This document shows positions 1-16,589 of a DNA stretch of 64,000 nucleotides, one piece after another (the first letter of the stretch is position 1; the number at the start of each line of letters is the position of its first letter). Position numbers and translations under genes: made by a program. Under the pieces are notes generated by a model. The model made no database searches. It saw only the letters and a list, made by a program, of their open reading frames with translations, and was not told the origin of the DNA. The DNA lies in contig QCIX01000005.1 in the NCBI GenBank assembly GCA_003216355.1, forward strand, positions 759 to 64,758. Reading direction: 5' to 3'. Origin of the DNA: Prochlorococcus sp. AG-402-N23 (GTDB taxonomy: Bacteria > Cyanobacteriota > Cyanobacteriia > PCC-6307 > Cyanobiaceae).

Positions 1-55
1 TATTGTGACTAAGCAAAATATAAAATTTGCAATTACAAATTTTTTCATAAGAATC

Positions 56-640
56 TTAAGTAAATTTTTTGTTCGATCTTTTTAAAACTAAATAAAAGGT
101 AAGAACGCTAATTGTTCCAGATGGGCCTATTAAAACATGCCAAAATTGATCGCCACTAATTGAGAGCCTTGTTCCAAAGAAAGTCGTAAAAAAAATACCA
201 AATATTGGGTAAAGGATAAAAAGCCAATCTTTAAAAACTCTTTGCCAATTTATAATTAGAAGGATACTTATAATGACTTGAAAAAGAAGAGCAATTGTTT
301 TACCAAATAAAAAATATGAGATTATTGAACATAGAGAAATGCAAAAGTTAGTTTTTTGAATAAATTTATTTTTTATAACTGATATTGATAAACACGTTAG
401 ACCCAAAGATAGGAAAGAATAAAATAACCAATTAAATAAAGACGAATGATCTACATAAATCCAAGATGTTTGGGTATGATCTATCATTTCAGAAATCGAT
501 GCCAATCCTAAAAAAATAAAACCAAAAGGTATCAACTCGTTCTTGCGAATGTGTTTGAATTTTTTGATCGATCTAATTCCTAATAATATTGGGATTATTG
601 CCGCCTGAAAATGGGCTAATAATAAAATTGAAAAAAACAA
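56..640 (-). CDS. hypothetical multi-pass membrane protein
   Basis: 194-aa ORF with several hydrophobic segments; no family recognised. Confidence 0.7.
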   Translation of the reverse strand: MFFSILLLAHFQAAIIPILLGIRSIKKFKHIRKNELIPFGFIFLGLASISEMIDHTQTSWIYVDHSSLFNWLFYSFLSLGLTCLSISVIKNKFIQKTNFCISLCSIISYFLFGKTIALLFQVIISILLIINWQRVFKDWLFILYPIFGIFFTTFFGTRLSISGDQFWHVLIGPSGTISVLTFYLVLKRSNKKFT

Positions 641-695
641 AATAAATTCTCAAACTCAATTTATCTTAAATTTAAAGTTAAAAATCATTTTCAGG

Positions 696-896
696 TTATC
701 TTGCTAGAGATAAATACCATTGCCCTATTACTATGATTAATACTGTAAGAACAAAAGGGAAGGCAGGATATCTTGTCTGAAAATTAGCTGGTGGCCAAGG
801 AGACCAAGATATTAATCTACCTTGAGGTTCGTTTGAAATAACTTTTTTTTTCGATTTTTTGGATATTAAATTGTCTGTAGCAAATCCTTTACTCAT
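696..896 (-). CDS. small hypothetical membrane protein
   Basis: 66-aa ORF, ATG start, C-terminal TM helix. Confidence 0.6.
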   Translation of the reverse strand: MSKGFATDNLISKKSKKKVISNEPQGRLISWSPWPPANFQTRYPAFPFVLTVLIIVIGQWYLSLAR

Positions 897-981
897 AGAA
901 CAAATAAAATTTACTCTAACAAATGCGTACCAAAAAGGCGTTCATATTATTCAGTTGAACTTCAATTGTTTTTTATTAGAA

Positions 982-1068
982 CGGAGGGGGTGGGATTCGA
1001 ACCCACGGTGCCCTTGCAGACACGCTAGTTTTCAAGACTAGAGCCTTAAACCACTCGACCACCCCTCC
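982..1068 (-). tRNA. tRNA-Ser(TGA)
   Basis: Reverse complement GGAGGGGTGGTCGAGTGGTTTAAGGCTCTAGTCTTGAAAACTAGCGTG...GGTTCGAATCCCACCCCCTCCG; TGA anticodon, long variable arm, T-loop. Confidence 0.97.
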
Positions 1069-1215
1069 AGGGTTAAATATACACTTTTAACTTTTGAATT
1101 ATAGCAGTATTGAGTTACAGAAAGGTTTTCTAATTTAGTAGATATTTAAAAATAAAAATATGGCTTTTGATTTATTTTTACTTGAAGTGTTTAAACGGGT
1201 CTTTCTATGAAAAAG

Positions 1216-1234
1216 TGGTCTCTATGTGGTCTCC
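1216..1234 (+). repeat. arm-type-like repeat TGGTCTCTATGTGGTCTCC
   Basis: 18/19 identical to 2044-2062; two TGGTCTC units 11 bp apart. Confidence 0.75.
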
Positions 1235-1383
1235 TCATTTTTATCGAAAAATATATATTTCTAATTTTTATCAAAATCCTTGACGTTAATTCCACTTACG
1301 GAATATCGAATTTGAATTTATAACTTTTTACGGTGCAAGTAGTGAGCTTTTCATTTAATCATTAAATTTATTTAACCTTAGTT

Positions 1384-1980
1384 TTAAAAATCTGGTTTAA
1401 TAATCCTATACCAGCTTCGGACCATTATTATTGCTGCCCAATTTGTATTTAAAACTTCATTAAATTGATAATATAACACCCATCGAGAATCATGATAATA
1501 ACCATTGTACTCTTGACAATTTGTTGATACCCATGACTGTTCATTAAGAGCTTGATTGTATGATTTTGAATAACCTGTTGTTTCCCAATATTCACCATTT
1601 CTGTCATACCATGTAAAATCGTAATAGCCTCTATATTGCTTAGAAATTTTAAATAATTTCCTGTCATCGCAAAAGAAGGTATCTTTTTTAAAACCTTTAT
1701 AATTGCCTAGAATCTTGTAATAGGCTGTTTCACATTTCTTCCAATCAGTAAAATGGTAATATCTCTCTGTCCAAGTTTTCTTTTTGGTTGGATCAAATTG
1801 ACCATCATAAGTTCGATTTGTTGAAAACTCAATCGAAACTGTAGGTAAGTGGCTTGGAGGATCTTCAGCTCTAAATCCTCTATAAGCAATATTATTGCCT
1901 TCAAAATATTTCTCACATACACTTTTTGCGTTAACAATCGGATTAGCTATTAGGTAGAGAATAATTAATAACTTTTTCAA
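1384..1980 (-). CDS. putative secreted hypothetical protein (element cargo)
   Basis: ORF 1384-2034; an in-frame TTG at 1980 gives signal-peptide-like MKKLLIILYLIANPIVNA; Tyr/Trp rich. Confidence 0.65.
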   Translation of the reverse strand: MKKLLIILYLIANPIVNAKSVCEKYFEGNNIAYRGFRAEDPPSHLPTVSIEFSTNRTYDGQFDPTKKKTWTERYYHFTDWKKCETAYYKILGNYKGFKKDTFFCDDRKLFKISKQYRGYYDFTWYDRNGEYWETTGYSKSYNQALNEQSWVSTNCQEYNGYYHDSRWVLYYQFNEVLNTNWAAIIMVRSWYRIIKPDF

Positions 1981-2043
1981 TTTAAGAAGAGTTAATAGAC
2001 CTTCATTGTATCTGGGATATTCAAAATTAAGCAATAATTTTAT

Positions 2044-2062
2044 TGGTCTCTATTTGGTCTCC
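2044..2062 (+). repeat. arm-type-like repeat TGGTCTCTATTTGGTCTCC
   Basis: second copy of 1216-1234, ~105 bp inside the distal att repeat. Confidence 0.75.
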
Positions 2063-2166
2063 CCTGTCTCGATAGGGGTATTTTATTCTTATGGTATTAC
2101 TCTTAAGATTAGTGTTATATCTACTGATTACAGATAATTTATAAATTTACTTTTTTCCCAAAAAGA

Positions 2167-2212
2167 TAGTTTTCAAGACTAGAGCCTTAAACCACTTGAC
2201 CACCCCTCCAGG
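2167..2212 (-). repeat. partial tRNA-Ser (5' half to anticodon stem), att site
   Basis: 45/46 identity to 1026-1071. Confidence 0.92.
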
Positions 2213-2345
2213 CAGAAATATTAAATTTTTAGCTTTTTAATTATAACAAAAAGAGGTTGATCTTTTTGGAAATAATTCAGAAACGCATGTCAAGTTGCAT
2301 ATCAAAGCCACTGTTAAATGAAAATAAATTTAGCTTCCAAAAAAA

Positions 2346-2495
2346 TCACCCAAAGTTGACATTTTGTTGAAATAAACCAAATAAGTTATTCCCAACTATG
2401 GCAGCGATTATTAAAACGAAGGCAACTATGGCGAAAAGAGCACTAACATCTTTTATGTCATAAGGTGCTTTAAATAAAGGTTTTTGGTCTGCCAT
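2346..2495 (-). CDS. small membrane protein (49 aa)
   Basis: Manually translated MADQKPLFKAPYDIKDVSALFAIVAFVLIIAAIVGNNLFGLFQQNVNFG; one TM helix. Confidence 0.6.
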   Translation of the reverse strand: MADQKPLFKAPYDIKDVSALFAIVAFVLIIAAIVGNNLFGLFQQNVNFG

Positions 2496-2583
2496 TGTTA
2501 TCTAATATATAAATGCAATTGAATTATATTATTTAATGCTTGTGGGAAGTATTAAGTTATTTTTTACTCTAAGAATGGATAAT

Positions 2584-2610
2584 AAAAAAGCCACTTTTAG
2601 TGGCTTTTTC
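2584..2610. terminator. intrinsic terminator (bidirectional geometry)
   Basis: AAAAAAGCCAC-TTTTA-GTGGCTTTTT hairpin just downstream of the DUF4278 ORF. Confidence 0.8.
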
Positions 2611-2628
2611 TTTTGATGGTTAAATAAA

Positions 2629-2730
2629 CTAGCTTGTGTAAGCTTTTCCTCTATAAGTTAGTTCATTGTGCTGCTTTTTAGCTGCTTCTTTGTTCTGGAC
2701 GTACTTTTGTCCTCTGTAAATTAGAGTCAT
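2629..2730 (-). CDS. DUF4278-family small protein (33 aa; Yfr6-encoded peptide type)
   Basis: MTLIYRGQKYVQNKEAAKKQHNELTYRGKAYTS with duplicated LxYRG motif. Confidence 0.85.
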   Translation of the reverse strand: MTLIYRGQKYVQNKEAAKKQHNELTYRGKAYTS

Positions 2731-2747
2731 TTTTTTAGCTCCGGTTT

Positions 2748-2810
2748 CGCTTAAGTCCCCGTTCCATGGCTTAGGTCGATTTGCGGCTTGCTATACGCAA
2801 GTTGAACGTT
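2748..2810 (-). ncRNA. glutamine riboswitch type II (Downstream-peptide motif)
   Basis: CGTTCA...GCCGCAAATCGACCTAAGCCATGGAACGGGGACTTA; CGTTC/GAACG pairing; directly upstream of DUF4278. Confidence 0.85.
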
Positions 2811-2813
2811 TTG

Positions 2814-2827
2814 GTAGCGGTTGCTAC
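2814..2827. promoter_or_regulatory. NtcA binding site
   Basis: GTA-GCGGTTGC-TAC (GTA-N8-TAC) between a -10-like TATTAT and the riboswitch; repressor geometry. Confidence 0.75.
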
Positions 2828-3035
2828 AAATTTATAATAACATCCATTGAAATTATTTGTCTAGGTTTTTAATAAATAAACTTAATATATTAATGATAGA
2901 TTAGGTTTATGATAAAAATATTTATCATAATCTCGGCTTAATTGCTTACAGGTTACATTTTGTACGTTTTTGAGAAGTATTTTTTATTTAATGAACTTTT
3001 AAATGTAAAATTCTTAAGATTATAAAATTTGTTTT

Positions 3036-3230
3036 ATGTTTTCTAGAAGCAAAAAACCTACAGTAAAAAAATCTGCAATAGTTGATGAGACTCCATTATT
3101 TGCTCAATTATTACCATTCGCGAACAGGATGAATGATAAGGTCCAATTGGTAAATGCTTTGGCTTTTACTTTTATTATGGGATTCTCAATATTTGGAATT
3201 GCTCTGTGGAAACTATCAGGATTGACCTAA
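3036..3230 (+). CDS. small membrane protein
   Basis: 64-aa ORF, C-terminal TM helix. Confidence 0.65.
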   Translation: MFSRSKKPTVKKSAIVDETPLFAQLLPFANRMNDKVQLVNALAFTFIMGFSIFGIALWKLSGLT

Positions 3231-3493
3231 TTATTTAATTTTTGCAAACCATCAATTTTTGATTCTTTGTTTTCAATTATGGTTATTAACCATCTAGAGG
3301 CTAGGCCTCTGGATATTGATCTATTTTTTAGTAATCTACATATATAAACGTGTAGATTTTTTTCGTTTTTGGAGTTAAATTTTTCCTCAAAATCTAAGAT
3401 ATCCTCATCTGATGTTCTTTTTCTTAGCTCATCCACCAATGCATGACTAGAGGAATCATTAAAAAAGTTCCCAATATTTAAGCTTAATGTCAT
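3227..3493 (-). CDS. conserved hypothetical protein
   Basis: 88-aa ORF with ATG start downstream of nrdJ. Confidence 0.65.
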   Translation of the reverse strand: MTLSLNIGNFFNDSSSHALVDELRKRTSDEDILDFEEKFNSKNEKNLHVYICRLLKNRSISRGLASRWLITIIENKESKIDGLQKLNN

Positions 3494-3581
3494 AAATAAT
3501 TTATGTCCCTATTTAAGAGGTAGCCATAAATTAAATTTTTAAAAACTAATTTATATTTTTTATTTACAAATAATTCAAAAT

Positions 3582-5915
3582 TTAATCTTTTGGTTTAGCA
3601 AGAGGAAGCAAGCACTTATCTGAATCACAACCTGCTGGTCCTGCTTCAGATAGTTCTCCAACATCATATTTATTAAGAGCGTCAAAGAAATCGTTATTGA
3701 CTTTCCTTTCTATTACTTTATTCTGCAATGATATATATTCCTCTTTACTTATTGGTTCAAAGGGTAATCTCGGGAAAGTAGCGTTAGCACTAAATCTAGC
3801 CAGCAATGCTGCTGAAATATATCCCTCATTATTTTCTATTGCATTATGAATAGCCTTAGCTAAATCCTCGATTTCATTTTCTCTAAATTCTACGGTTGCA
3901 GAGGTATTATGCTCTGTGTAAAATTTCTGCACTTGCATGTAAAAATCAAATTGAGCTAATGCTGAGAAATTATTGATGTCTATTTGGTCTGCGCCGTCTA
4001 TATTTGCCCAACTAACTTCTGTAGGGATTTCAACTAACCATTCTGTACATCTTGGGTCAAATGGATTATCGAGCAAGCAACCATTTTCATCTTTATCAGA
4101 TTGAGATGGAACAACTGAGTAACCATAATCCATGCAAGCTAAAGCGATTGGGTCATTTTTCCTGAAGGTTATTCTTCTTATGAATCTTTGAGCCTTTGGA
4201 GGATGCCAACCTGGAGCTGCTCCAGTAAGAAGGCTTTTAGTTCCAGCTGGCTGAACTGTTGTGCATCTATTTGGTCTCCTTAGATTATGCTTATCACAAT
4301 ATTCCCATACAGTTTCTTTTACTATTTTTCTCCAAGAATCTAAGAATTTAGCCTCCTTTTCTTTGAAGGCCTTCCCTTCTTCGCTATTTGGCCTTCCTGA
4401 TTCCCACCATTTCAACCATGGCGTCCCAAAGGCATGGACACAAAAATCAAATAATCCAGTGAAACTTACACCTACGATAGGATCATATTCCCTACTTTTT
4501 CTGTAACGCTCAACTTCAAATTCATGATTAAGTAAGCATGCTACAGAAAGAGCGGCTGCTTTAAAAGCTTTTTTTTGCTCTTCAAAATTTCCTGGATCAA
4601 TCTGATTTAAATGAACTTCAGCTAAATTGCAATGGAAATCATTTCCCAAGATCTCCCCACAAGGGTTAAGTCCATATCGGCTCATCCTGTGATCTAACTC
4701 TTCTTCTGAAAAAGGACCATAACTACTATTTATCCAATTTCTCGCTTCATCCTTGCCTTGTTCTGAATAGATTTCAATAAATTCCTTTCTCAATTCATCA
4801 TCTTTGAGAATATCTGCATTTGACCTTGCGATTGCTTCTGGAGCAAATTGAATAGCTCCCTCACCTGAATGGAATTGTTTCGTTACTGCATCCAAAACAG
4901 TTTGGTAATTGGGCTTTGTATGGTAAACCCTAGTATGATTGGCCATTCTTAGGGCATCTTTTTCAGGATCTATTCTCCAATTACCATTCTCATCTTGACT
5001 CCATAAATTTTCTTTTGCTGATGCGGCTTCCTTATCATCTGAAGCAAATTGCCTCATTCCAGCGCTTCTTCTTATATTCCCAGCAACTATGGTTACTGCA
5101 GCTTCATCAATTAATAAACAACACTCTACTGTACTTAATTTTCTACCAATTGCCTTTCCAAGGAGGGAGGCAACTCTAGAGTAAAGATCTTTCAATTTGA
5201 TAGGATTTGCCATACCACCAAAACCTTTTAACGATTCTCCAGCAGGCCTAATATCTTCCAAATCAATATAAACATCAATTTCTCTTTCAAGACTTTCGTT
5301 ACTTGATGCCTCAAGAAGATATTTATAGCTATCTACCCATCCTCTTCTGCTATCTCCAACTTTGATATGAAGATCTTTTCCTTTAATTTCTAATGATGAC
5401 TTTTCTTCTCTTTGATCTTTAGGAGTTTTTCCAACTTCACTGACTGATTTAATATTTATTTTGTTAATTACCGTAGGTAGATTATTTATAAAATGAGGCT
5501 CAATAATTGCACCTGTTCCACATCCCATCATTGCTAAGTCCATCATTAATGCGAAGGCTTCCCAATCAATTAAGTTTGTTGAGGTACAGTTGTATGCTCC
5601 TGAGAAATTTTGGTTCTTATTAATCCAAGGGGTTCCGCCTATCCATAACCATCTTCCTGAAGGTTGGGCTTTTTGGTTACTTTGCATCTCTCTCATCAGG
5701 ATCAATTCTTCTTCAGAAAGTTTTCCTAATTCTTTTAATCCCGATAAATTCCTTTCTCCTACTTCGCTCCAGTTCTCCCTTTTGCCAGATGAAGTTTTTC
5801 TACTGTAAGATCTGAAAAAAACTGGATAAGCAGCTGGCGCAGTCTTTGGAAAATCATCTTTTTTAAGATTATTGGAATTGCTCTCTGAAGAAGCTTTATT
5901 TGGTGCAACAGTCAC
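3582..5915 (-). CDS. nrdJ: class II adenosylcobalamin-dependent ribonucleotide reductase
   Basis: AYNC, GLNPCGEI (thiyl radical Cys), TTVQPAGTKSLL, C-terminal GCDSDKC. Confidence 0.95.
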   Translation of the reverse strand: MTVAPNKASSESNSNNLKKDDFPKTAPAAYPVFFRSYSRKTSSGKRENWSEVGERNLSGLKELGKLSEEELILMREMQSNQKAQPSGRWLWIGGTPWINKNQNFSGAYNCTSTNLIDWEAFALMMDLAMMGCGTGAIIEPHFINNLPTVINKINIKSVSEVGKTPKDQREEKSSLEIKGKDLHIKVGDSRRGWVDSYKYLLEASSNESLEREIDVYIDLEDIRPAGESLKGFGGMANPIKLKDLYSRVASLLGKAIGRKLSTVECCLLIDEAAVTIVAGNIRRSAGMRQFASDDKEAASAKENLWSQDENGNWRIDPEKDALRMANHTRVYHTKPNYQTVLDAVTKQFHSGEGAIQFAPEAIARSNADILKDDELRKEFIEIYSEQGKDEARNWINSSYGPFSEEELDHRMSRYGLNPCGEILGNDFHCNLAEVHLNQIDPGNFEEQKKAFKAAALSVACLLNHEFEVERYRKSREYDPIVGVSFTGLFDFCVHAFGTPWLKWWESGRPNSEEGKAFKEKEAKFLDSWRKIVKETVWEYCDKHNLRRPNRCTTVQPAGTKSLLTGAAPGWHPPKAQRFIRRITFRKNDPIALACMDYGYSVVPSQSDKDENGCLLDNPFDPRCTEWLVEIPTEVSWANIDGADQIDINNFSALAQFDFYMQVQKFYTEHNTSATVEFRENEIEDLAKAIHNAIENNEGYISAALLARFSANATFPRLPFEPISKEEYISLQNKVIERKVNNDFFDALNKYDVGELSEAGPAGCDSDKCLLPLAKPKD

Positions 5916-5957
5916 GATAAAAAAAAACGTATGTAAATAACCCGTACTGGAAGAATA

Positions 5958-6004
5958 ACTCTACCTGTGGCGTCTGCAACTATTCTTACCACTATTTAAC
6001 GGTT
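5958..6004. promoter_or_regulatory. tandem NrdR boxes
   Basis: ACTCTACCTGTGGCGT (5958-5973) and CCACTATTTAACGGTT (5989-6004), 31 bp apart, upstream of nrdJ. Confidence 0.6.
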
Positions 6005-15699: not shown

Positions 15700-16589
15700 C
15701 TAATTTTATTTAATTTCCTCCCGATTTCCTCTATATTTTTATATTGTTTTGGTTCTGCCTTTATAAATCTTTTTGCATTGAACATATCTAATATCTGTTT
15801 ATGTGATTTTTGCTTTATATCTAAATTTAGAATTACTGATTGAAGTTCTTTTGTAAACCCTTCCCCGAATCTATTTTCAAGATCACCTTGAGCTACCCAA
15901 TGATAGTCAACATATTCTGGTGTGATCCAGAATAATTCTAAATTACTTGTTCTTTTGGGATTATTTATAAGATTGTTTTCCCAAACCTGTTTATTTAAAG
16001 CTCCAGCATCAAATGCCCCACTATTAACTAAAGCTATAGTGGCATCATGACTCCCACTAAAACCTGCTTTTTTTCCTTTAAAATGTTTAATTTCTACCCC
16101 TGCTTGATTTAAAAAATATTCTGGCATTAATCTTCCAGAAGTTGAGTTTTCAGAGCCAAAAGTAAATCTTAAATTCTTTAGTTTTTTAAGTCCTTTAATG
16201 TTTGAAATTGAGTTAAGTTCTAAATTTTTGTTTACTATAAAAACACTTTTAAATTCCTTATCGATATCTCTTTGAGCTATGACAATTGAATTAGGTGTTT
16301 GTAATCTTGCTTGAACTCCTGATAAACCGCCAAACCAAACCAAATCTAAATCTTTAGTTCTAAATCCAGTTACTGCTGCAACATAATTAATAACAGGAAT
16401 GTATTTAACTTCTACATCAAGTTGTTTGGATAATTCTTTTGAAAATAAATTAAATCTTTTGTCCAAAACATCTTGGTTTTGATCAGGTATTGCTCCAACT
16501 TTTAAAACTTTGGGATTTGAAAATACAGGTGATGAAAAAACAGAAAATAATAGAGATGAACTTAGTAGGAAATTCTTTAAATTAAACAT
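15696..16589 (-). CDS. phnD: phosphonate/phosphite-type ABC substrate-binding protein
   Basis: signal peptide; GSENSTSGRLMP, GSHDA, YVDYHW. Confidence 0.88.
   Translation of the reverse strand: MFNLKNFLLSSSLLFSVFSSPVFSNPKVLKVGAIPDQNQDVLDKRFNLFSKELSKQLDVEVKYIPVINYVAAVTGFRTKDLDLVWFGGLSGVQARLQTPNSIVIAQRDIDKEFKSVFIVNKNLELNSISNIKGLKKLKNLRFTFGSENSTSGRLMPEYFLNQAGVEIKHFKGKKAGFSGSHDATIALVNSGAFDAGALNKQVWENNLINNPKRTSNLELFWITPEYVDYHWVAQGDLENRFGEGFTKELQSVILNLDIKQKSHKQILDMFNAKRFIKAEPKQYKNIEEIGRKLNKIR

Follow-up and report, generated by a model that had tools for sequence, protein, structure and literature searches.

The 1,141-bp unit at positions 1072-2212 of the analysed window (64,000 nucleotides of Prochlorococcus sp. 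AG-402-N23), located upstream of the tRNA-Ser(TGA) gene, is probably a non-autonomous, integrase-less derivative of a tycheposon, present as a one-gene cassette. It appears to keep, complete on the left and on the right, the att sites of an element with a tyrosine recombinase and with specificity for the tRNA-Ser(TGA) 5' half, and we infer from its sequence that it may be mobilised in trans. The first-pass annotation had treated the unit as a single find, whereas our comparison places it as one member of a family of integrase-less cassettes at a known tycheposon target, tRNA-Ser(TGA) being one of the seven tRNA targets of these elements (Hackl et al., bioRxiv 10.1101/2020.12.28.424599).

The tRNA gene, its displaced 5' half and the interior of the unit

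The intact tRNA gene has its anticodon at 1034-1032 on the minus strand (ARAGORN, Rfam) and is the only Ser(tga) among the 30 tRNAs of the host assembly. A repeat search of the window returned a direct repeat (1026-1095 versus 2167-2236), the first 46 nt of which are identical except for C1056/T2197, confirming the previously proposed one-mismatch repeat (1026-1071 and 2167-2212) that brackets the unit. A 26-mer taken from this repeat occurs exactly twice in the window, with none expected from 100 shuffles. The 46 bp span four nucleotides of the 3' strand of the anticodon stem, the loop and the remaining sequence through the tRNA 5' end plus 2 nt, which places the unit on the 5' (promoter) side of the gene. 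At position 2197 the displaced half carries a T; the corresponding base is a C in the gene and in all full tRNA copies read from relatives.

Promoter-like DNA follows each repeat copy, as the first-pass annotation had noticed: ATTATA (TATAAT on the minus strand) is located at 1098-1103 and 2240-2245, representing the minus-strand -10 boxes of the P' arm (1103-1098) and of the class B region (2245-2240). The first is 28 nt upstream of the real tRNA 5' end, the second 29 nt upstream of the copied one. The idea that the element brings both a 5' half and a promoter is supported by an integrase-bearing element in attP form, which carries the 5' half with TATAAT about 29 nt upstream, and for the promoter also by the 13 arm classes adjoining a full tRNA, all 13 of which have a -10 box 27-31 nt upstream. 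The proposed crossover in the anticodon loop is likewise supported, as every copy from a relative or a metagenome shows sequence identity that starts at 1024-1029 and extends as far as the 5' end of the tRNA. The start of the identity block and the side and orientation of the displaced fragment are those of a lambda-type att site in a tRNA anticodon loop, the class of Williams 2002 (cited from PMC8371274, PMC4383910), and an upstream 5' fragment in direct orientation agrees with the Islander configuration rule. Under this integration model, the 3' half of the gene is chromosomal and its 5' half (1026-1069) would derive from the element.

Coordinates of the features at the tRNA-Ser(TGA) locus (window positions)
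Feature	Position	Strand	Basis or remark
tRNA-Ser(TGA), intact	981..1069	-	ARAGORN; Rfam tRNA, 57 bits
Core repeat copy 1, forming the identity block on the attL side; reaches from the anticodon stem-loop to 2 nt beyond the tRNA 5' end	1026..1071		
P' arm ('promA' class); supplies the tRNA promoter and an arm repeat	1072..1245		Comparison with G059, G009, G045
P' arm tandem heptamers TGGTCTC-TATG-TGGTCTC, 11-bp period	1216..1233	+	About 145 bp from the tRNA 5' end
Gene-start relic MKSSLLAP*	1328..1354	-	Read from sequence; motif comparison
Cargo gene, secreted protein, 198 aa	1384..1980	-	ORF list; likely TTG start at 1980
P arm	2040..2166		Alignments; hairpin prediction
P arm tandem heptamers TGGTCTC-TATT-TGGTCTC	2044..2061	+	About 105 bp ahead of the displaced 5' half
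Core repeat copy 2, displaced tRNA 5' half	2167..2212		
'Class B' remnant of an older element: promoter, degenerate arm repeats and P-arm end	2213..2340		Comparison with integrase-bearing G052

Both ends of the unit are conserved arms. The P' arm is 91-93% identical to arms that in G059, G009 and G045 adjoin the tRNA or one of its 5'-half copies, and the P arm (2043-2166) is about 93% identical to that of metagenome contig L385, a carrier of autonomous-type backbone genes; its conserved box TGTCTCGATAG sits within a predicted hairpin at 2061-2078. The tandem heptamers in the two arms are putative arm-type integrase sites. Two further arm-like matches at 3979 and 4266 are located within the nrdJ coding sequence and were taken as chance.

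The sole long ORF of the unit, which all other ORFs overlap, encodes the expected secreted protein with a signal peptide, and an alternative TTG at 2034 would extend it to 1384-2034 (216 aa). Only four non-self homologues of this protein were found among 5.8 billion proteins, Pfam gave no match, and the gene was found in no other of the 285 genomes; the AlphaFold model has a mean pLDDT of 38, and comparison with the protein atlas reached a best score of 0.76 and gave no lead. The ORF list and Pfam also bore out that the unit is without a recombinase, and yielded no ORF of a replication module (primase, helicase, polymerase) in 1072-2166. A search for a resident helper integrase (PF00589, and tblastn with three tycheposon integrases) returned only a 389-aa core integrase on another contig of the 81%-complete assembly. 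In the first 6,000 positions (1-6000), nothing but the tRNA and a Glutamine-II riboswitch exceeded the Rfam threshold, with no match to a Yfr-type RNA, though class B has GGAAAC-like repeats. The relic MKSSLLAP* derives from a conserved MKRLLLPLLAALALP-type signal-peptide module, common to many cargo genes of the island, and marks an earlier cargo replacement. A 15-mer at 1333-1347, considered as a repeat element, was rejected, as it is unrepeated in the host assembly and is the complement of the conserved signal-peptide gene start.

The DNA behind the displaced half changes one part of the earlier picture, in which the element had displaced the native 5' half and promoter of the tRNA gene. 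The new 5' half and promoter hold, but the displaced copy (2167-2212) is not the native one: alignments of relatives place it on the collapsed remnant of an earlier element, the native promoter being deleted. This class B region has degenerate arm repeats at 2265-2284 (TTTGGAAATAATTCAGAAAC, compare TTCGGAACTCATTCGGAACT), and alignment with empty sites and with class-B sites shows a truncation at about 2326-2340: by deletion at a AAATTTAG microhomology, the native promoter region of 172 bp was lost there together with a third copy of the 5' half. Across the genus, a class-B unit of 165-168 bp is the commonest spacing at this locus. Backward joints from 2251 to 1025 and from 2308 to 1030 were considered as circle junctions and rejected, since in each a class-B unit runs into a further copy of the 5' half, an arrangement also present in G007.

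A cassette family and its integrase-bearing counterparts

Comparison with related genomes, suggested earlier as a check, revealed both an empty site and alternative cargo, and the repeat is therefore not a fixed tandem duplication. The empty site, with a native 'class X' upstream region, is present in nine relatives; in others the same flanks are 20-49 kb apart, and many small units were also found at the site. The pattern TGGTCYC-N4-TGGTCYC occurs in 14 out of 285 genomes, always at the tRNA-Ser(TGA) locus and in 9 of the 14 as a close same-strand pair, while the reversed heptamer pattern, used as a control, had no match in the 285 genomes. Integrase-less TGGTCYC cassettes are likewise carried by metagenome contigs. 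Within the family, distances are about 145 bp between the P' site and the tRNA 5' end and about 100 bp between the P site and the 5'-half copy that follows it, and all close pairs have the same T/C variant of the heptamer in both arms. Such arms enclose at least ten different cargo sets, and on one metagenome contig the window's own arms enclose 1,026 other letters. The signal-peptide motif recurs in or beside the cargo genes of several other cassettes at the locus.

The cassettes of G057 and G275 are 98.6% identical over 1,180 bp, compared with 90.4% for their right flanks, indicating that cassettes spread horizontally, and those of G057 and G059 have arms that are 97-98% identical and one gene in common, with the middle segment swapped. 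The arms of the window and of G017 are only 85-88% alike between flanks that are 95% alike, which argues that the present copy is no recent arrival from the G017 lineage. The window, G017 and the metagenome contigs L386 and L385 have one distal junction in common, at which a P arm is followed by the 5' half and class B, and this could reflect one old insertion followed by in-place turnover of cargo.

Arms of this kind are also found on elements that carry an integrase. The metagenome contigs L390 and L384 comprise a P arm, the tRNA 5' half only, TATAAT and a P' arm at +150, followed by a 406-aa tyrosine integrase, and also carry DUF3987. L390 has a terminal redundancy of 460 nt and represents the attP form (circular or tandem), with attP about 200 bp upstream of int; the arm repeats of the window are of the same type and spacing as those of this attP. 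The integrase is 27-30% identical to those of the G052 and G204 elements. Both of these elements lie on the 5' side of the tRNA. The G052 element has matched TTCGGAACT repeats in both arms; the G204 element has a P arm homologous to that of the window and arms with unlike repeats, so that the same repeat in both arms is not an absolute rule. Three divergent integrases pair with three different arm repeats (TGGTCCC, TTCGGAACT and AGTCCACGC), which is suggestive of an integrase N-terminal domain that binds the arm heptamers.

Free or moving forms were searched for in two collections. Integrase-less cassettes yielded neither a circle nor an excision junction. Logan contigs break at the 46-bp repeat, making circle and empty-site junctions of the window cassette invisible there. 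In viral contigs, a 24-mer of the tRNA 5' half returned no free mini-cassettes; its matches were mostly phage-encoded full tRNA-Ser genes, together with one Prochlorococcus-like contig. Matches of viral contigs to the bare arm repeats were discarded, as each scan returned at least 120 unrelated contigs and the pattern is too short for this collection.

Origin and mobility of the cassette

In the mechanism that we favour, strand exchange within the 7-nt anticodon loop would lead to insertion, and the incoming DNA would supply a new 5' half and promoter so that the single-copy tRNA remains expressed, while the previous 5' half, already on the collapsed remnant of an earlier element, would be pushed inward. 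The heptamers may serve as arm-type sites for the integrase, and a full element would become a cassette by replacement of everything between the two arm sites. Such a cassette might still be excised, or carried along, by the cognate integrase of a visiting element. On a more tentative level, which we consider possible though with the balance against it, the 5' side of tRNA-Ser(TGA) in high-light Prochlorococcus might act as an integron-like gene-capture platform, where cassettes of one to three genes, with hardly more to them than a pair of arm sites plus a 5' half and promoter of the tRNA, would be genuine non-autonomous mobile units that the integrases of visiting tycheposons insert and exchange in trans.

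The first-pass annotation had left the choice between a cassette mobilised in trans and a deletion remnant; this choice is now narrowed. An immobile decay product, i.e., a full tycheposon that lost its integrase and replication genes, kept its arms by recency or chance and moves no further, would fit the published model, which expects degenerated elements and stray partial tRNAs in islands (10.1101/2020.12.28.424599), and a collapse of this sort is evident in the adjacent class-B unit. The distal junction common to G017, L386 and L385 and the lack of an integrase in the searched 81%-complete assembly point in the same direction. However, independent decay would not yield identical boundaries, just inside the arm repeats, in at least ten cassettes with unrelated cargo, and both arm repeats are exact, with T/C variants that agree between arms. 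Together with the sister cassette that is 98.6% identical where the genome flanks are at 90%, this leads us to regard mere decay as unlikely.

Similarly low is the probability that we assign to cassette replacement by homologous recombination, with the arms and the signal-peptide module acting as mere homology anchors and site-specific recombination no longer involved. Interiors are indeed exchanged exactly between conserved arms, the middle segment is swapped between G057 and G059, and a relic signal-peptide gene start in the P' arm has its motif in or beside the cargo of other cassettes. Yet homology arms of 130-175 bp are short, and replacement of this kind leaves unexplained why the phased heptamers are exact in each arm and how the 5' half and promoter first came to the site. 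The favoured origin from a tycheposon is compatible with it, the two not being mutually exclusive. A scar of a local tandem duplication of the tRNA 5' region, with no mobile-element history, might be read from two direct copies that are each followed by similar promoter-like DNA, but the regions that follow the two copies are of different arm classes, each found without the other in further genomes, and the empty sites, the variable cargo and the presence of the unit's arms on elements that carry an integrase, one of them in attP form, make this origin extremely improbable.

Relation to known systems and implications for gene turnover

The unit shares with tycheposons the host group, the target gene in an island, flanking by a full and a partial tRNA copy, a cargo gene and an additive island, and its arms have homologues on integrase-bearing elements that also carry the replication gene DUF3987. 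It differs in having neither its own integrase nor a replication module and would consequently be missed by the published integrase-seeded tycheposon pipeline (10.1101/2020.12.28.424599). In the text and supplement of that study the word 'promoter' is absent, and tRNA-Ser 5' versus 3' halves, arm repeats and integrase-less cassettes as a class are not discussed. Integration into the 5' half of a tRNA, described in a review as 'seldomly encountered in bacteria' (PMC8371274), is known from the pTN3-like integrases of Thermococcales, where attB is the tRNA 5' half and the tRNA is then transcribed from an element-borne promoter (PMC8371274). The present unit resembles this system in both respects; the archaeal integrases, however, are 'suicidal', with attP inside int, and the unit has no int.

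Among integrons and CALINs (attC clusters that lack an integrase), the likeness is to small, mostly one-gene, promoter-poor cassettes that are stacked at one site with the newest proximal, and cassettes of the TGGTCYC family are usually co-oriented with the upstream promoter. Unlike integron cassettes, they have no attC hairpins, IntI or attI, each carries its own tRNA promoter, and the recombination sites of the unit are lambda-like (a core in the tRNA plus arm repeats); its ends are tRNA halves and direct arm repeats, with no IntI-type gene nearby. A phage satellite of the PICI type fits poorly with a single secreted-protein gene, and the scans of viral contigs found no such unit. CIMEs are reportedly cis-mobilisable derivatives of the ICEs of Streptococcus thermophilus, said to become mobile when a related autonomous element inserts adjacent to them and both excise together. 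The likeness lies in functional-looking attL and attR of an integrative element family that flank a unit without recombination genes, and here both arms of the autonomous family are kept (P arm as in L385, repeats as in the L390 attP). Host and recombinase family are different, conjugation is not involved, and the target of the unit is a tRNA 5' half.

How genes are gained and lost in Prochlorococcus is a central question for a very abundant phototroph that is reported to be without plasmids, conjugation and competence genes and almost entirely without prophages (10.1101/2020.12.28.424599). Tycheposons are the proposed vectors, yet they make up just a few percent of island DNA. The locus reveals a simpler layer, i.e., integrase-less cassettes with apparently complete docking sites in common with integrase-bearing elements of the ocean, which diverged cells have in common and whose cargo is a wide variety of small secreted-protein or defence genes. 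The locus further provides a heavily used bacterial case of tRNA 5'-half integration, in which an essential tRNA depends on the incoming DNA for its promoter, and with it a naturally occurring set of at least 13 tRNA promoters that are interchangeable. Should the platform reading hold, every insertion would swap this promoter, and the old promoter and tRNA half would be left before the previous cassette, where they may drive its usually co-oriented cargo. If mobilisation in trans is true, integrase-seeded pipelines overlook such cassettes, and the mobile DNA of Prochlorococcus islands would be undercounted.

Empty and occupied states of the tRNA-Ser(TGA) site

The window (G000:C5:759-64758) has a G+C content of about 30% and belongs to an assembly of 1.31 Mb that is 81% complete; judged on composition and gene content, it is taken to come from a high-light Prochlorococcus. 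Its tRNA-Ser(TGA) gene is single-copy, no other Ser(UGA) tRNA being present among the 30 tRNAs that the assembly yielded. The 46-bp repeat takes in the anticodon loop (1030-1036) and all that follows up to 2 nt past the tRNA 5' end, and therefore the 1,141-bp unit sits on the promoter side of the gene. A 26-mer of the repeat has exactly two occurrences in the window and none in 100 shuffles, and a minus-strand TATAAT lies 28 nt upstream of the real tRNA 5' end and, for the copied end, 29 nt upstream. ARAGORN, Rfam, repeat search and ORFs confirmed in all details what the first-pass annotation had described, namely a 46-bp repeat, a promoter-side position, TATAAT after both copies and a single secreted-protein gene. 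Two arm-motif matches at 3979 and 4266 lie inside the ribonucleotide reductase gene of the right flank and were taken as chance.

Features of the window, tRNA 3'-half copies in relatives, and cargo of cassettes with TGGTCYC arms
Feature	Source	Position	Strand	Detail
tRNA-Ser(TGA)	window	981-1069	minus	ARAGORN and Rfam
Direct repeat	window	1026-1095 and 2167-2236		repeat search; first 46 nt alike except 1056/2197
TGGTCTC-N4-TGGTCTC	window	1216-1233 and 2044-2061	same orientation	inside unit
Relic gene start MKSSLLAP*	window	1354-1328	minus	complement of motif encoding MKRLLLPLLAALALP-type signal peptide, common to many cargo genes here
Cargo gene	window	1384-1980	minus	198-aa protein with signal peptide; sole real-looking gene in unit
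Terminator-like hairpin	window	2585-2609
Small ORF	window	~2633-2745	minus	downstream of Glutamine-II riboswitch
Glutamine-II riboswitch	window	2750-2811	minus	conserved right flank; 63 bits, E 5e-14
Class II (B12-dependent) ribonucleotide reductase gene	window	3582-5915	minus	conserved right flank
tRNA 3'-half copy	L045	4370-4414
tRNA 3'-half copy	L046	3661-3705
tRNA 3'-half copy	L043	2963-3005
tRNA 3'-half copy	L041	5635-5669
tRNA 3'-half copy	L044	4503-4518
Cassette	window			198 aa
Cassette	G059			90 + 90 aa
Cassette	G057, G275			86 + 90 aa
Cassette	G045			90 aa
Cassette	G239			70-aa lipoprotein
Cassette	G055, G175			170 aa
Cassette	G017			213 aa
Cassette	G227, G178			158 + 87 aa
Cassette	metagenome contig L386			108 aa
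Cassette	metagenome contig L388			99 aa
Cassette	metagenome contig L392 (MDTE01179295.1)	243-5152		TGGTCCC arms; 4.9-kb set: Eco57I-type methylase + T5orf172/ResIII protein
G numbers, genomes of the genus; other L numbers, fetched loci.

Searching 100 genomes of the genus with window positions 600-3000, we found the distance from left to right flank in three states, of about 172 bp, of a few hundred bases to a few kb, and of 20-49 kb. A clean empty site is present in nine relatives (G036, G064, G003, G049, G014, G030, G011, G088 and G001), where a conserved upstream region of 172 bp, termed class X, separates the intact tRNA from the right flank. Since class X adjoins the tRNA in empty sites and comes after the outermost 5'-half copy in occupied genomes, it is the native promoter region. 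Two to four 5'-half copies occur in about 90 of the 210 genomes with the tRNA assembled (hand count from the table of copies), and tRNA-Ser(TGA) is among the seven published targets of tycheposons, mobile elements of Prochlorococcus (10.1101/2020.12.28.424599). Relatives thus offer both empty sites and alternative cargo, which argues against a fixed duplication.

Many relatives also have 1-12 kb of cargo on the 3' side of the gene; it separates the tRNA from the left flank and is delimited by a 16-45-nt copy of the tRNA 3' half, and genome G052 has a 429-aa integrase there; in the window nothing is inserted on this side. Insertions on both sides indicate that the anticodon loop is used from both sides. 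One contig of genome G149 carries two tRNA-Ser 5' halves 31 kb apart (G149:C1:36487 and 67662; L055, L069), each followed by a TGGTCTC arm of the tRNA-side type, the first lying 100 bp from a 3'-half copy.

After the displaced half at 2167-2212 comes a different sequence class, class B, in place of class X, and this half is not the native copy. Elsewhere in the genus, class B is a unit of 165-168 bp made up of promoter, one TTCGGAAnn repeat pair, short arm end and 5' half, and this is the commonest spacing of 5'-half copies, with about 20 of the pairs listed (e.g. G043:C1:661915/662082, G052:C1:639877/640044). This unit is a product to which one element type collapses very frequently, or else an 'empty' docking unit. 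An 8.6-kb element with an integrase, and with TTCGGAACTCATTCGGAACT near each of its ends, occupies the same place in the complete genome G052, and class B looks like a G052-like element that has collapsed from one arm repeat to the other. In the window, class B joins the right flank directly at about 2326-2340, at AAATTTAG, which is present in both partners; neither a third 5'-half copy nor any of class X remains. With class B in place of class X, and with class B read as a collapsed element, the window holds two events rather than one: a class-B element was inserted and collapsed, and the present cassette was then inserted at the tRNA. The native promoter region was also deleted, at some point in this order.

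Cassettes with matched arms and exchanged cargo

Of 285 genomes of the genus, 14 have the pattern TGGTCYC-N4-TGGTCYC, in each case at the tRNA-Ser(TGA) locus, and none matches the reversed control pattern. Close pairs, 494-937 bp apart in 9 genomes, have the first repeat about 145 bp from the tRNA 5' end and the second about 100 bp before the 5'-half copy, and all carry the same variant in both arms (TCTC or CCC). Homology among cassettes is confined to two stretches, one reaching from the tRNA a little beyond the first repeat, the other starting shortly before the second repeat and ending at the 5'-half copy; the DNA in between is unrelated among family members. None of the cassettes in the table has an integrase; the cargo of L392 is likely restriction or defence.

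The 198-aa protein of the window had no Pfam match, no confident fold in structure prediction and four non-self homologues in 5.8 billion proteins. In contigs of four marine metagenomes aligned to the window, this cargo is present, nearly identical, at a depth of 3-8 versus thousands for the flanks, and one marine metagenome contig has the window's own arms enclosing 1,026 other letters. The relic MKSSLLAP* marks at least one replacement of cargo inside the window's arms, and suggests a contribution of homologous exchange at the signal-peptide module. Many unrelated island cargo proteins begin with an almost identical signal peptide, MKRLLLPLLAALALPTAVNA, whose conservation extends to the DNA (L060, L064, L058, L023, L045, L046, L386, L387), and truncated relics of this gene start sit within cassette arms, e.g., at 1328-1354 (minus) in the window; the conserved start may serve cargo shuffling as a recombination module.

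The 86 + 90-aa cassettes of G057 and G275 are 98.6% identical over 1,180 bp, compared with 90.4% for the right flanks, while G057 and G059 have arms 97-98% identical, one gene in common and the middle swapped. Outer neighbours of CCC-type cassettes vary between class X, an older tycheposon remnant and another cassette. Together, these comparisons are indirect evidence that the cassettes spread horizontally. Counted against recent mobility of the window's copy are its cargo, which occurs in no other genome of the genus set, its outer junction, which is common to G017, L386 and the metagenome contig L385, its arms, which are no closer to those of G017 than flanks are to flanks, and the integrases of the 81% complete assembly, limited to a 389-aa core integrase 24-25% identical to tycheposon integrases. 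We infer that the cassette would be mobilised in trans.

Integrase-bearing elements and incoming promoters

A metagenome scan with the signature of the P arm, which precedes the displaced 5' half, gave contigs L390 (8,703 bp) and L384. Both carry, in this order, a P arm with two TGGTCCC, a tRNA 5' half without the 3' half, TATAAT about 29 nt on, two TGGTCCC at +150 and a tyrosine integrase gene, an order corresponding to the attP arrangement of a circular or tandem molecule. The free element thus directly shows the tRNA 5' half and promoter of its own that had been proposed for it. The L390 integrase, about 406 aa allowing for a 460-nt terminal redundancy of the contig, shares 27-30% identity with those of G052 and G204. 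L390 further carries a primase/helicase-type gene (DUF3987) and encodes a second, small recombinase as well as an HTH protein. L385 has the backbone genes found beside the P arm in L390, and its P arm shares about 93% identity with window 2043-2166, TGGTCTCTATTTGGTCTC included. Genome G204 (L081 12186-19948) has a 7.7-kb integrase-bearing element whose P arm, with TGGTCTC twice, is homologous to that of the window and whose P' arm has a different repeat, AGTCCACGC, twice; it is probably a composite, a newer element fused with the outer arm of an older cassette with loss of the 5'-half copy between. Three divergent integrases pair with three different repeats, TGGTCCC, TTCGGAACT and AGTCCACGC, which fits the repeats as putative arm-type sites.

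Just outside the P-arm repeat, autonomous elements have a palindrome mimicking the tRNA anticodon stem (L390 7210-7240, L385, and locus L035 at about 15770-15800), with the form GGCTCTAGT-N7-ACTAGAGCC in L390 and L385 and CTAGTCTTCAAGACTAG in G052. It may be a secondary core site and is lacking from the window's cassette.

The 120 nt upstream of each full or partial 5' half in the fetched loci (110 copies) fall into 27 sequence classes, several homologous to class X; class B and the 'promA' class, which lies beside the tRNA in the window, are not obviously so. All 13 classes beside a full tRNA have a hexamer at most one mismatch from TATAAT and ending 27-31 nt from the mature 5' end, so that each incoming arm brings a working-looking promoter at the right place. 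Among all 27 classes, 21 TATAAT-like hexamers lie at 27-32 nt and the others are spread over the remaining ~115 positions. A 5'-side insertion into a single-copy tRNA requires such an incoming promoter. In a review of tyrosine recombinases, bacterial recombinant tRNA genes retain their original promoter with very few exceptions, and targeting of the 5' half is 'seldomly encountered in bacteria' (PMC8371274). Islander's rules permit a 5' fragment upstream of the tRNA.

Relation to tycheposons and other mobile elements

The window's unit works like a tycheposon insertion but, lacking both an integrase and a replication gene, falls outside the tycheposon definition. Integrases are the seeds of the published pipeline, and promoters, arm repeats and integrase-less cassettes are absent from that paper and its supplement, which mention only 'degenerated elements' and stray partial tRNAs (10.1101/2020.12.28.424599). 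An integron cassette was ruled out since attC and IntI are lacking, and a phage satellite since there are no packaging genes. CIMEs (cis-mobilisable elements), which have att sites without recombination genes, are the nearest concept. The earlier reading was essentially right, with the correction that the unit belongs to a known system. New here are the demonstration that non-autonomous cassettes form a family whose arms are intact, matched and common to integrase-bearing elements, the exact arm-to-arm modularity of their cargo and the serial promoter replacement of an essential tRNA.
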